Origin: Schmidtea polychroa
Taxonomy: Eukaryota
Assembly: GCA_044892525.1 (NCBI GenBank)
Contig: CM097885.1
Location: 5,334,001 to 5,398,000 of the forward strand
DNA: 64,000 bases
Direction of reading: 5' to 3'
This document shows positions 10,849 through 28,270 of the stretch, piece after piece. Every line of letters starts with the position of its first letter. The first letter of the stretch is position 1. The notes beneath the pieces were generated by a model. It saw nothing but the letters and a program-made list of their open reading frames with translations, was not told the DNA's origin and ran no database searches. The translations under genes were made by a program, and so were the position numbers.

Positions 10849-13659
10849 TAGAAATTTATTACATTGAGTTCTTAAATAATGGATTTACCTCACTTTAATA
10901 TATGTTGAGAATAAAGTCTATAAATGAAGTCTAAATTAATAAATCGACCTTGGCGAAAAAAAATTAAACATATTATTTAAACACGAAACACTTGTAACCT
11001 ATTTAAAAAGATGTTTCAATTATTAGATAAATGGTGATTTATGAATTTTAGAATAATAAATTTATCAATTAGTATTTCAAATTATCATTTTAAATTGTTG
11101 AAATTAAAATAATTTAGAAAGATATCCTTTTTAATTTCGGTAGCTATATGAATATTATTAAATTTGGTATATTTCAAATTCTACATAACTATTATTGCAC
11201 AACAATAAAATATATTCAAAAATTTAAATAAGTTTATTTAATTTACATTTAATAAAATAATAGAGTTGAAGACTAATAATTATGTAATTAATTTGAATTA
11301 ATATACAAGTGAGCCTGTTTAGATTTGCATAATTTTGCTATAACATGCTGTAAATTTTTCAATTTTCGATTATAATTTATATCGAAGCTCTGGCACTATG
11401 TTAAAAAATATTAACTATACATAGAATAAATTAAAACTAATTAAATATTTCAACAGCAGAGATTCACACATGAATCACAGGTATCCAGTATTCACCAACT
11501 ATATGTGCTTTAATTTCAATTAGTTTTTTTTACAAATTTTCTCAATACTTTTTCTTATACCCTGCAATACCTAGTTTATCCCCAAAGAGACGCGTCCAAT
11601 TAGTAAAGGACATCTGATTCGCTGAATTTGCGAGAATCTTCAAAATATTCATTAATTTTTTTTGAATCCTCCAAACAACAAATCCAATAAAGGTTTACTA
11701 TTGAAAAAAGTTTATTTTATTGGTTTTACCAATTTTATTACAAGTACTGGCATTGGAACCATTTAAATTAATCTTATAGAATTGTGAACCAAGTACGTTG
11801 TTCTATTCATTCAGATTTGGTTGCCCAGCACTGTGCTTTTATAATGTAATTACAATAACTGTGATTATGTGTATGAGGAAGTTGATAGATTCTTAAAGAT
11901 TTAATAAGAAATTTTGTTAAATTTAAAAAAATATTTTTATTGAAAAATATTTTAAAATGAAGACTGAAATTTAGCATTCTTAAAAATCATTTTTATTTTA
12001 AAATATTTTAAAAGGAAAATTGAAATTTGTTTAAATTACAAGAATAAGAAAGACAAGTTTTTGAGTGTAAAATTTATTGAATAAAATTTACGGAATTATT
12101 TCGTGATTTGCAAACAGATATTAATGTTGTATCGGATGAAAATTCTAATAACATGCATTTGTAGAATAAATGTTTTCATTTTAAATTTGTTTCAATAATT
12201 TCAGCACTAATTTTTTTTAATAATACAATTTAAGATTTAAGATTTAAATAAAATAAGATGAAAAATGACAAGTGTACCATTAGAGTAATTGCTTTTTCGG
12301 AACTCCTTTTATTTAAAACCTTCATAATTGAGAAATTTGAATATAATATTTGTTTTTTATACTTTTAGTCTTACTTACTTTGACCTCGAAATATTTGAAT
12401 TAGCCGTCAAAATATAACTGGTCAATTATGTTGTAGACAATTAAAAATTTTCATTCATTGTTGTACAATACAAATTTGCACTATACAGTTGAACATAAAA
12501 GTAATGTAGTATTTATTTCAAACTATTATTTTTAATGTTATGTATTATTAAAAATTGAATAGGAATTATTTTTATCTATATATTTATAAAAAATAACCTA
12601 CCAAATTAAAACAATGTGTTACTCAACTTTAGCCTCATAAATGAAAAAACGTAAGGCTAGCAAATAAAATTAATTTTTATAAAATAATTAACTTTTTAAT
12701 TTTGTAGAAAAGATTCAGAAATTAGTTATTTTTAATAAAAACTTTTAAATTTTAAAAGTGAATTTTATGAAAAATAATTTAAAGTTTTTATAAAATTTAT
12801 TTGGAATAACAAAAAACAATTTTAAAATTAATTATTTAAAAATAATTTTGTCAAAAAATACTTTAATGACAATTATCAAAAATAACGATTATTTTATCAA
12901 TGGTTTGGTAGTAGTTTTCATTATGGGAATTTTGTGGCGAGAGAAAGTTTATTTCTCTGATCAAGTTAGAATTCTATAGGAAAGTTGTCATCCACCTTGG
13001 CAAGATTTTCATCAGACAGGTAAGTTAGCTTGTTCCCTATTTAACAACAATGCTCAATTTAATAAAGCCCCACGATGACATTAAATAAGGGTTTATTTAT
13101 TTTACGTTAATTTTTTTATTTAATCATAAATTTTAATATTTTTTAAAGTAGTTTAGTAATTTGTTTTTGTACTTTTAAGGTTAAACTATTTTTTTAAATT
13201 TTTGATGGGTTTAGTCACCTAAAAGTAAGATATTTAGTTGGGAAATTAAACAATTTGTTTGTTACTCAACATTTTGTTGATTTTCTAAGTATGTTTTCAA
13301 TTTTTAAAATTTTATGCATTCAGTTCTGTCGTAGAAGTCAGAATTTTTTGACACAAATTCTACCATAAAAAATAAATTAACTAATAAACTTACATATTTG
13401 ATTATATGGAAAAATTTGTGGTGTGAAATTATCAAAAATCTTCCTTTTTAAATTTTTAAATGAGGTTCTCACTTATTGGTAATCAATCACACATTGGTTA
13501 ATGAAACACGCAAAAACATATTGTGGGTGTTATTTTTTGTCATTTACAGTAGTATGATGTGAGCTCCCCAGATCAGGAGCTCCCCGCGCCACATATACCC
13601 CCTCCCCCCCCCCGGGAAAAAAAAATTTTTTTTTTAATTTTTTGTTTTAATTAATTGGC

Positions 13660-14945
13660 CTGGCGGGCTCACACTTTTTTTCATCCCAAAAATTAATGTT
13701 CCCACCAACGGATTTTATTGGACGATACCTCATCTTAAAGCCCAGTGCAAGACCTTTCGATTGATTCATAGAAGGTATCATCATCATTATTATTGACAAA
13801 GTTATTAACAATTGATGACCACCATCTTTTCAACGTTAAATTATTATTATTATTCAAAATATTATTAATTGGCCGGGCGGTGACATACTTTTTCTCATCC
13901 CAAAAATTAATGTTCCCACCAACGGATTGGACGATACCTCATTTTAAAGCCCAATGCAAGACCTTTCGATTGATTCATAGAAGGTATCATCATCATTATT
14001 ATTGACAAAGTTATTAACAATTGATGACCACCATCTTTTCAACGTTAAATTATTATTATTATTCAAAATATTATTAATTGGCCGGGCGGGGACATACTTT
14101 TTCTCATCCCAAAAATTAATGTTCCCATTATCCGAATTTATTAATCGATAGCTTATTTTGAAGCGTAGTCTAAGACCTTTCAATTGAGCCATAGAAGGTA
14201 TCATCATCATTAACATCGGCAAAGTTATTAAAGTTTTACCGAGACCATTTTTCAAGGTCATTTATTTTTCAAAATATTATTTTCAAGGTCAAGGTCAAGG
14301 TCATTTATTTTTTTCAAGGTCATTTATTTTTTTTCAAGGTCATTTATTTTTTCAAGGTCATTTATTTTTTCAAGGTCATTTATTTTTTCAAGGTCATTTA
14401 TTTTTTCAAGGTCATATTTTAAAATTTAAATGTACAGAGTTCCCGACAACGATAATTATTCAACGATAGCTCATTTTAAAGCCCAATGCAAGACCTTTCG
14501 ATTGATTCATAGAAGGTATCATCATCATTATTATTGACAAAGTTATTAACAATTGATGACCACCATCTTTTCAACGTTAAATTATTATTATTATTCAAAA
14601 TATTATTAATTGGCCGGGCGGTGACATACTTTTTCTCATCCCAAAAATTAATGTTCCCACCAACGGATTTTATTGGACGATACCTCATTTTAAAGCCCAA
14701 TGCAAGACCTTTCGAATGAGCTAATGAAGGTATCATCATCATTATTATTGACAAAGTTATTAACATTTTACCAAAAATCATTTTCAAGGTCATATAATTA
14801 TTAAGTGGTCTGGCGGGCCCCTACTCTTTTTCATCCCAAAAATTAATGTTCCCATTATCCGAATTTATTGGACGATACCTCATCTTAAAGCTCAGTCCAA
14901 GACCTTTCGAATGAGCCATAGAAGGTATCATCATCATTAATATTA
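13660..14945 (+). repeat. Subterminal ~210 bp repeats of the Maverick arm (mirror copy at ~26870-28155)
   Basis: Anchor TCATCCCAAAAATT at 13681, 13895, 14104, 14636, 14831 and a diverged copy at 15725. Confidence 0.9.
14248..14415 (+). repeat. TCAAGGTCA-core 18-20 bp tandem array (second array 15010-15215; mirrors 26600-26805 and 27400-27570)
   Basis: TTTTCAAGGTCATTTA repeated directly in the sequence. Confidence 0.92.
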
Positions 14946-27100: not shown

Positions 27101-28270
27101 TCGAAAGGTCTTGCATTGGGCTTTAAAATGAGGTATCGTCCAATAAAATCCGTTGGTGGGAACATTAATTTTTGGGATGAGAAAAAGTATGTCACCGCCC
27201 GGCCAATTAATAATATTTTGAATAATAATAATAATTTAACGTTGAAAAGATGGTGGTCATCAATTGTTAATAACTTTGTCAATAATAATGATGATGATAC
27301 CTTCTATGAATCAATCGAAAGGTCTTGCATTGGGCTTTAAAATGAGCTATCGTTGAATAATTATCGTTGTCGGGAACTCTGTACATTTAAATTTTAAAAT
27401 ATGACCTTGAAAAAATAAATGACCTTGAAAAAATAAATGACCTTGAAAAAATAAATGACCTTGAAAAAATAAATGACCTTGAAAAAAAATAAATGACCTT
27501 GAAAAAAATAAATGACCTTGACCTTGACCTTGAAAATAATATTTTGAAAAATAAATGACCTTGAAAAATGGTCTCGGTAAAACTTTAATAACTTTGCCGA
27601 TGTTAATGATGATGATACCTTCTATGGCTCAATTGAAAGGTCTTAGACTACGCTTCAAAATAAGCTATCGATTAATAAATTCGGATAATGGGAACATTAA
27701 TTTTTGGGATGAGAAAAAGTATGTCCCCGCCCGGCCAATTAATAATATTTTGAATAATAATAATAATTTAACGTTGAAAAGATGGTGGTCATCAATTGTT
27801 AATAACTTTGTCAATAATAATGATGATGATACCTTCTATGAATCAATCGAAAGGTCTTGCATTGGGCTTTAAAATGAGGTATCGTCCAATCCGTTGGTGG
27901 GAACATTAATTTTTGGGATGAGAAAAAGTATGTCACCGCCCGGCCAATTAATAATATTTTGAATAATAATAATAATTTAACGTTGAAAAGATGGTGGTCA
28001 TCAATTGTTAATAACTTTGTCAATAATAATGATGATGATACCTTCTATGAATCAATCGAAAGGTCTTGCACTGGGCTTTAAGATGAGGTATCGTCCAATA
28101 AAATCCGTTGGTGGGAACATTAATTTTTGGGATGAAAAAAAGTGTGAGCCCGCCAGGCCAATTAATTAAAACAAAAAATTAAAAAAAAAATTTTTTTTTC
28201 CCGGGGGGGGGGGGAGGGGGTATATGTGGCGCGGGGAGCTCCTGATCTGGGGAGCTCACATCATACTACT
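21196..28270 (-). repeat. Right arm of giant inverted repeat (7,075 bp)
   Basis: Mirror of the left arm. The 41 bp length difference is accounted for by (TAA)n copy number and a C10/G12 run. Confidence 0.97.
23820..24930 (+). pseudogene. Candidate spliced cargo gene or relic in the Maverick arm (mirror copy ~16847-17957, minus)
   Basis: GT-AG intron-like segments at 23847-23893, 24226-24269, 24377-24412, 24550-24613 and 24661-24708 separate GC-richer blocks; AATAAA at 24923. The spliced frame contains stops and I recognise no domain. Confidence 0.4.

Follow-up and report, generated by a model that had tools for sequence, protein, structure and literature searches.

A gene-less palindromic element of Schmidtea polychroa, probably one copy of a high-copy Maverick/Polinton-derived family

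In a 64,000-nucleotide stretch of the Schmidtea polychroa genome (assembly GCA_044892525.1, contig CM097885.1; referred to here as the window), we characterized a 14.7 kb element at 13548-28270 that is almost entirely a palindrome. The window corresponds to C1:5334001-5398000 of a 781 Mb assembly, and all window positions given below are counted within these 64,000 nt. The element is probably one copy of a high-copy, gene-less and non-autonomous family derived from Maverick/Polinton elements, a near-perfect palindrome with arms of ~7 kb and a loop of ~0.6 kb. The original prediction, which was based on the letters of the window, took it for the integrated product of a single copy-back event and added that it was possibly a parasitic non-autonomous family. 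The first idea did not hold up, since the palindromic layout is inherited throughout a large family, while the second proved correct.

The element carries AGTAGT…ACTACT ends, read directly from the sequence. At the left junction, ...gtcATTTAC is followed by the element start AGTAGTATGATG... (also given as AGTAGTATGATGTGAGC...), and at the right junction the element end ...CATCATACTACT (also given as ...GCTCACATCATACTACT) is followed by ATTTACacc.... ATTTAC is thus present on both sides as a target site duplication (TSD), and the whole is arranged as follows:

13542..13547, no strand: left TSD copy ATTTAC, by direct reading; identical to 28271-28276
13548..20581, plus strand: left arm, 7,034 nt, starting AGTAGTATGATGTGAGC (repeat search, self-BLAST, MAFFT)
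13548..15463, plus strand: terminal and subterminal region common to the element and a 16.3 kb autonomous Maverick, 88-96% identical (BLAST, Tandem Repeats Finder)
15464..20581, plus strand: inner arm, non-coding, without DNA, tblastn or tblastx likeness to the autonomous Maverick (BLAST, Pfam)
16880..17250, no strand: conserved, relatively GC-rich block (comparison of 12 arms from six copies)
20582..21195, no strand: spacer (loop), 614 nt, unique (repeat search, self-BLAST)
21196..28270, minus strand: right arm, 7,075 nt, the left arm in reverse complement, ending ...GCTCACATCATACTACT (self-BLAST, MAFFT)
24527..24897, no strand: mirror of the conserved block in the right arm (arm alignment; a 36-mer match at C1:5358752-5358787 equals window 24752-24787)
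28271..28276, no strand: right TSD copy ATTTAC, by direct reading

Direct reading and self-BLAST upheld every coordinate and number that had been predicted for the AGTAGT termini, the ATTTAC TSD, the arms of 7.03 and 7.08 kb and the 614 bp spacer. The arms cover 96% of the palindromic element and are 99.3% identical over 7,078 aligned columns (repeat search and self-BLAST of the element). Their MAFFT alignment (7,034 versus 7,075 nt) contains five differences in total: two substitutions, at 18718 and 20442, and three length changes, in one C-run, one (TTA)n and one (TAT)n. The '100%' obtained for the inner 5,056 nt of the arms is a rounded value, the real count being two mismatches. The window has a G+C content of ~25%. 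Tandem sub-repeats of ~209 bp at 13650-14231, together with 18-bp repeats and microsatellites, build the terminal region 13548-15463.

In the assembly, at least 40 scored matches cover the first 153 nt of the element at near-full length. We compared the studied copy with six other plus/minus pairs of termini (E29, E226, E103, E40, EC2_129 and E8). Five of the six were palindromic, E8 being the exception; the arms of E29, E226 and E103 are 6.5-6.9 kb long and 99.3-99.5% identical, and those of E40 and EC2_129 are more diverged or interrupted. All six palindromic copies, the studied one included, are flanked by a perfect 6-bp TSD, and all six TSDs differ (atttac, cattaa, ccgaaa, ataata, aatgat and tatatg). 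A matching 6-bp TSD has a chance of 1 in 4,096 per element, and it was observed in eight of the eight elements examined with this terminus type. Other palindromic copies with different TSDs were among the things that the original prediction had proposed to look for, and five were found. The first ~129-137 nt of the studied copy's spacer are arm sequence in other subfamilies, inverted across the loop, so that its own subfamily has lost ~313 nt from the right side of the loop.

The arms, loop and junction of the studied element recur at many loci. Genome-wide, a terminal 38-mer (at most two mismatches) matched 107 times in forward and 115 times in reverse orientation, a spacer 39-mer 32 and 30 times (62), and an invariant inner-arm 36-mer 968 and 941 times (1,909), with no match for the reversed control of any of the three. 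Among the first 100 matches listed for the 36-mer (C1, 0.13-29.5 Mb), 64 fell into 32 convergent pairs no more than 13 kb apart, and 18 of these pairs were spaced 7.6-8.5 kb, like the studied element; the only other neighbours were four divergent and two same-strand pairs. By extrapolation only, there may be several hundred palindromic elements, perhaps 600-850, making up ~1% of the genome. We considered whether shorter marker spacings might mark independent fold-back points; the one such centre that was retrieved, C1:8884600-8887100, proved to be the same loop and arm with an internal deletion and not a new turn-around. As would be expected of a non-autonomous derivative, the family is present in multiple copies at unrelated sites, each with its own TSD, and its ends are, judged by sequence, homologous to the ends of a coding element from this genome that is described below.

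These copies also bear on whether the locus is real. A fold-back chimeric read or a mis-joined repeat could place such a structure in an assembly; short words are unable to resolve a perfect palindrome, and over 12000-15240 the Logan contigs of two runs extend no more than 27 nt across the left junction, short of the 31 required for bridging, and were not counted as support. Two further runs had no cover at 13417-13525 of the window, and the reads as a whole gave no verdict on presence, absence or polymorphism. No empty site or alternative haplotig was found in the assembly, where the left flank has a single 100% match and the right flank is a repeat. The palindrome is nevertheless not a fold-back artefact of assembly, because two different flank sequences bear the matching 6-bp TSD and because five more loci share the structure, each with its own TSD; the 32 convergent arm-marker pairs in the first 29.5 Mb of C1 argue in the same direction. 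We therefore assign an assembly artefact hardly any probability at all.

An autonomous partner with shared ends, also proposed as a check in the original prediction, was found at C2:159691260-159707594 (16,335 bp, TSD ttcaat; hereafter FULL). It has a DNA polymerase B (PolB) open reading frame (ORF) of 1,387 aa, residues 501-1120 of which match DNA_pol_B_2 (PF03175) at 2.6e-28. According to Pfam, its other frames include an rve integrase with a weak Chromo match, a Pox_A32-like ATPase and a Peptidase_C5 (adenain-like) protease, while frames of 360 and 427 aa occupy the usual positions of the capsid genes and have no Pfam match. The rve match (PF00665), both in FULL and in E8, is at 8e-08 and 32.9 bits against a cut-off of 32.6. 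PolB frames gave 91 scored matches in the genome, many of them open and 1,300-1,440 aa long.

By BLAST, the element and FULL have only the outer ~1.9 kb in common (13548-15463), which is 88-96% identical to both ends of FULL. This homology to the ends of an element with PolB and integrase, together with the published end motif and the 6-bp TSD, bears out the assignment to the Maverick type. Inverted similarity within FULL is confined to its outer ~1.5-2 kb, at 76-90% identity, so that 7-kb arms are not the norm for a coding relative; had autonomous relatives normally carried 7 kb terminal inverted repeats (TIRs), the original prediction would have lost its ground, and FULL gives no such reason to drop it. 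However, PolB-only palindromes with arms of 6-7 kb do exist in the genome.

The proposal that one end of a Maverick had been copied back stands for the outer ~1.9 kb and fails for the spacer and for 5.1 kb of inner sequence in each arm, neither of which has a counterpart in FULL. Blastn at word size 9 found no match between this inner part, loop included, and FULL, and tblastx of the inner arm at 1e-3 found none either. The element gave no tblastn match at E<=1 to any internal ORF of FULL, including the 1,387-aa PolB, and none to PolB ORFs cut from five of 12 PolB loci; E8 ORFs matched it only through frames inside the shared terminal repeats. No stop-to-stop frame inside the element exceeds 146 aa, and the one of that length is of low complexity. 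None of 31 frames of at least 45 aa from 15400-21300 reached the cut-off of a Pfam family, the sole weak row being Sigma_reg_N (18.9 bits against a cut-off of 26.3). Neither tblastn nor Pfam detected an rve integrase, capsid, packaging ATPase or protease gene in the element, in agreement with the prediction of no intact core gene. We accordingly rejected the idea that the arms hold remnants of Maverick genes, tblastn, tblastx and Pfam all being negative. At most, copy-back of one Maverick end describes the outer quarter of each arm.

These comparisons, with those among copies, decide against a single copy-back of an autonomous Maverick end shortly before integration, by which the locus would be a unique integrated defective genome. 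Such an event would account well for arms that differ by only two substitutions and for the canonical ends and TSD, and there are palindromes in this genome whose arms really are the PolB-bearing end of a Maverick (PB1 and PB2, below). It is highly improbable for the studied element, however, since the same arms, loop and junction occur at many loci with their own TSDs and with different flanks, which excludes segmental duplication; the architecture is common to copies separated by 2.2-5.8%, and the autonomous element lacks the inner 5.1 kb of each arm.

A second link to coding Mavericks is provided by hybrids. E8 (C1:8475851-8489488, perfect TSD catagc) has open frames with Pox_A32-like ATPase matches and with rve and weak Chromo matches, and its coding part is multi-copy at 99-100% identity (28 scored). 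It is FULL-like up to its position 8143 and has the right part of a palindromic element from position 8138. We asked whether E8 could be the progenitor of the palindromes and rejected this: the junction with the genes falls within the loop, near spacer position 406, and E8 lacks loop positions 130-405, which makes it a hybrid and not a precursor. Together with C1:80728429-80733131 and C4:10924089-10938074 it represents hybrids of 13.6-14 kb, in which the ATPase-integrase-capsid module of the autonomous Maverick makes up the left half and an arm of the palindromic family the right; they have no PolB and no protease ORF of at least 130 aa. Separately, at C1:210411610-210417842 the autonomous coding module occurs as an inverted pair that meets at query position ~989, a fold-back at another point.

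The hybrids are also relevant to whether the family might instead be a Foldback-type cut-and-paste transposon of another superfamily, with Maverick-like ends acquired or lent and an unrecognized transposase of its own. Long, internally repetitive TIRs without coding capacity are seen in Foldback or Galileo as well, the inner arm is unrelated to Maverick, and the window holds a fragment of a MULE transposase. Set against this, all six palindromic copies have a 6-bp TSD and the exact (AGT)2//(ACT)2 motif, homology to the autonomous Maverick extends over ~1.9 kb and so beyond the tips, E8-like hybrids join Maverick genes to a family arm in one TSD-flanked unit, and no transposase-bearing copy was present among the six other terminus pairs fetched. 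We consider a Foldback-type origin very unlikely.

We then compared divergence within and between copies, counted as substitutions over 3.4 kb of the inner arm. Arm-to-arm divergence was 0.03% in the studied element and in E226, 0.06% in E29 and in E103, 2.2% in E40 and 2.8% in EC2_129, and divergence between copies was 2.2-5.8%; similarity is 40-200 times closer between the two arms of one copy than for the same arm across lineages. The extreme ends behave similarly: 33 pairs could be formed from 100 listed termini, and all 10 pairs with one mismatch at both ends carry the same variant at each. Because the arm-loop organization is common to all copies, the palindrome must be older than the split of the lineages, and because lineages 4-6% apart have matching arms and co-varying ends, the arms have been homogenized along each lineage. 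This homogenization most likely happens at propagation. The arms of E40, 2.2% apart, are still mutual nearest relatives, as expected of an older copy that began with identical arms. Those of EC2_129 are mosaics whose nearest relatives lie in different lineages, an indication of recombination or conversion.

The main rival to this reading accepts the family and its mobilization as we propose them and has arm identity maintained by gene conversion in situ, not by fold-back replication. Conversion between arms is known from large sex-chromosome palindromes. A process that is stochastic at each locus should leave near-identical arms in some copies and not in others, as is the case here for four and two of the six, and the mosaic arms of EC2_129 suggest conversion or recombination. 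Nevertheless, lineages up to 5.8% apart all hold arms at <=0.06%, the same terminus variant stands at both ends in 10 of the 10 listed one-mismatch pairs, and conversion would have had to act in every source copy along all 7 kb of the arm, up to the very tips; moreover, new copies seem to be identical at the start and to diverge later (E40). On balance, we regard gene conversion as an unlikely source of the arm identity.

How might a gene-less palindrome propagate? The shared termini suggest that family copies are replicated and integrated in trans by the PolB/terminal protein and integrase of autonomous relatives. The palindrome itself would first have arisen in a fold-back (snap-back) event, and each round of propagation may pass through a single-stranded or self-primed fold-back form in which one arm serves as template for copying or repairing the other. 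A fold-back step at each propagation would explain both the matching arms and the matching terminus variants of diverged lineages. Protein-primed, strand-displacing replication from a terminal origin would release a single strand, and a released palindromic strand could snap into a 7 kb hairpin whose base-paired ends would restore the origin. In the adenovirus panhandle, paired ends restore the replication origin. Mismatches in the stem would be heteroduplex and open to repair, and a new perfect palindrome would also result from one arm if a nascent strand turned around at an internal inverted repeat. Since it needs only two good ends, such a family would behave as a parasite of autonomous Mavericks.

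Several observations weigh against this scheme. FULL and E8 have termini that are unlike on the left and on the right (…ATGATGTGAGC…GATCAGG versus …AGGATTGGAGC…GACCAGG), and the two variants are arranged oppositely relative to the genes in FULL and in E8; matching ends are thus not required by the machinery. The absence of the inner 5.1 kb and the loop from FULL means that the family cannot be derived from FULL by simple copy-back of an end, and with FULL, the one candidate parent that we identified, each arm shares no more than its outer ~1.9 kb. Two of the six copies (E40 at 2.2% and EC2_129 at 2.8%) are not homogenized, and in EC2_129 the arms are not mutual nearest relatives. High arm identity could equally be explained by gene conversion between chromosomal arms. 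The copy numbers are estimates from short patterns and from the first 100 matches listed only. Finally, the copies seen are all chromosomal, and it is from these that we infer mobilization in trans and a fold-back intermediate.

Two palindromes of other composition suggest, independently of the studied family, that Mavericks undergo fold-back in this genome. PB1 (C1:235380500-235399200, the element at ~2659-15934 of that piece) belongs to another family and is a 13.3 kb palindrome with arms of 6.06 kb that are 99.7% identical and the TSD TACACT. Each arm contains an 871-aa PolB frame (PF03175, 1.2e-32) and a 181-aa frame, and on the axis lies a 1.2 kb element with AGTAGTATGATTGGGG-type ends. 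PB2 (C3:32529500-32549400) has arms of 7.0 kb (2691-9692 and 11227-18205; 99.26% identical), each with an open 1,301-aa PolB frame, and an axis element of 1.66 kb of the same kind. No clear direct duplication was seen at its outer ends, where ~10 nt outside the ends look inverted. Both axis elements (1.2-1.7 kb) lie exactly on the axis and have Maverick-type ends of their own, with TIRs related to the studied family, and their flanks are inverted, not direct, the trace to be expected of a turn-around at a nested inverted repeat. Equally scoring PolB matches also lie close together in minus/plus orientation at three other places (C1:126058387/126068737, C1:139680126/139687007 and C1:264967225/264968853), which are possibly further PolB-bearing palindromes. 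For the full-length PolB frames of FULL (1,387 aa) and PB2 (1,301 aa), hmmscan named no family, while their sub-regions gave strong PF03175 matches. This is apparently an effect of filtering and calls for caution in the automated annotation of proteins rich in low-complexity sequence.

The terminus type of the axis elements occurs 126+124 times in the genome, and among 100 listed occurrences at least four plus/minus pairs are 0.9-1.1 kb apart (for example C1:19053566/19054651 and C2:156572073/156573049). These are possibly Maverick derivatives resembling miniature inverted-repeat transposable elements. In the studied family, none of the 33 terminus pairs among the matches listed was shorter than 10 kb. 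We do not rely on this size constraint as evidence of packaging, given the 0.9-1.1 kb pairs of the related terminus type, and the argument from a near-normal genome length made in the original prediction is weak for the same reason.

Within the arms, the block at 16880-17250 stands out. It is 97-100% identical in 10 other arms, whereas the rest of the arm drifts, and across the 12 arms of six copies it contains invariant runs of 64, 36, 71 and 112 nt. On the minus strand, 44 nt of it (17121-17164) align with the 5' domain of metazoan 7SL/signal recognition particle RNA (RF00017), with a score of 29.6 bits that is far below the gathering score of 70. The 7SL-like stretch folds no better than shuffled sequences (z-score 0.2). 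We do not claim an RNA gene in the block, given the sub-threshold Rfam score and the lack of excess fold stability; it is a conserved and possibly cis-acting block. No tRNA and no Rfam family at gathering score was found in the 64-kb window.

A bolder version of our reading would join all of these elements, and we offer it tentatively, as a possibility that we consider on the doubtful side. The palindromes might be heritable 'defective interfering' genomes of an active Maverick virus, in which every cycle would run through a single-stranded fold-back form, protein-primed synthesis copying one arm from the other. The family and its helpers would be competitors for polymerase, integrase and possibly capsids, selection would have kept the ~0.4 kb block, 7SL-like stretch included, as a cis-acting signal or small-RNA gene, and the PolB-only palindromes and integrase/capsid-only hybrids would form a community of mutually dependent defective genomes. 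If this were true, the family would record Maverick replication chemistry in the germ line.

Other features of the window were noted in passing. The right flank (28274-28970) belongs to another repeat family with at least 40 scored copies at 85-92% identity; copies of that repeat begin 3-4 nt inside the TSD, so that the element inserted at its very edge. The left flank (13092-13439) is an older repeat, 70-76% identical. A 263-aa open frame at 45864-46655 on the minus strand contains a MULE transposase domain (PF10551, 3.8e-11), and a 300-nt inverted repeat, 94% identical, is found at 30771-31084 and 51688-51989, 20.6 kb apart.

To our knowledge, the replication of Mavericks/Polintons has so far only been inferred from their genes, as excision, protein-primed copying and possibly virions. 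An intrastrand fold-back stage, in the form of a 'racket' or panhandle, is said to have been suggested by Kapitonov and Jurka in 2006 and also in adenovirus work. If our reading is right, a family that is palindromic over its whole length would be natural evidence for such a stage in Maverick replication, and a chromosomal, inherited counterpart of snap-back defective viral genomes. One genome offers the material to test this: many young copies, gene-arm hybrids, PolB-only palindromes and an intact-looking helper. At an extrapolated ~1% of the genome the family also matters for annotation, and inverted repeats that are perfect over 7 kb could act as fragile sites and as traps for assembly.

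Full-text literature searches, covering sources other than Repbase and subscription papers, returned no description of whole-length palindromic or of non-coding non-autonomous Mavericks. Repbase reportedly lists some non-autonomous Polintons. Foldback-type transposons (Drosophila FB, Galileo, Tetris) have long, internally repetitive inverted arms, a short middle and mostly non-coding copies; they belong to cut-and-paste superfamilies with TSDs of 7-9 bp. By these descriptions the studied element resembles them in its very long repetitive inverted arms, short middle and lack of coding sequence, and departs from them in its 6-bp TSD and in Maverick ends that are common to an element with PolB and integrase.

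Butterfly polintons, according to bioRxiv 10.1101/2025.02.07.637071, have ~2 kb TIRs that duplicate internal hexon and adenain genes. They share kilobase-long inverted ends with our element; however, they hold a full unique gene set between TIRs of 2 kb, in contrast to 7 kb non-coding arms around 0.6 kb of unique sequence. For Mavericks in general, PMC8097293 gives a signature of 5'-(AGT)2//(ACT)2-3' or (AG)3//(CT)3 ends with a 6-bp TSD and, for intact vertebrate elements, sizes of 12.7-24.6 kb and TIRs of 46-1,447 bp. The studied element agrees with that signature in its end motif and 6-bp TSD, and its terminal ~1.9 kb is homologous to an element with PolB, rve, ATPase and protease; its arms take up 96% of its length, unlike the TIRs of 46-1,447 bp reported there. 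It also lacks the gene content of an autonomous Maverick, and its inner arms have no relative in the autonomous partner.

In 1976, Daniell reportedly found long inverted repetitions in the DNA of incomplete adenovirus particles (J Virol). Compared with snap-back defective viral genomes, for which we follow the definition in PMC13506859, the element is likewise a symmetric palindrome without coding capacity and with two ends that would be replication-competent, and it probably depends on a helper. It differs in being integrated and inherited and in having multiplied into a family with diverged lineages; the greater part of its arm is not helper sequence, and it is known here from chromosomal copies alone. 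The element behaves as a non-autonomous Maverick would and has the appearance of a snap-back genome as PMC13506859 defines it, while it fits the definition of copy-back only in part.

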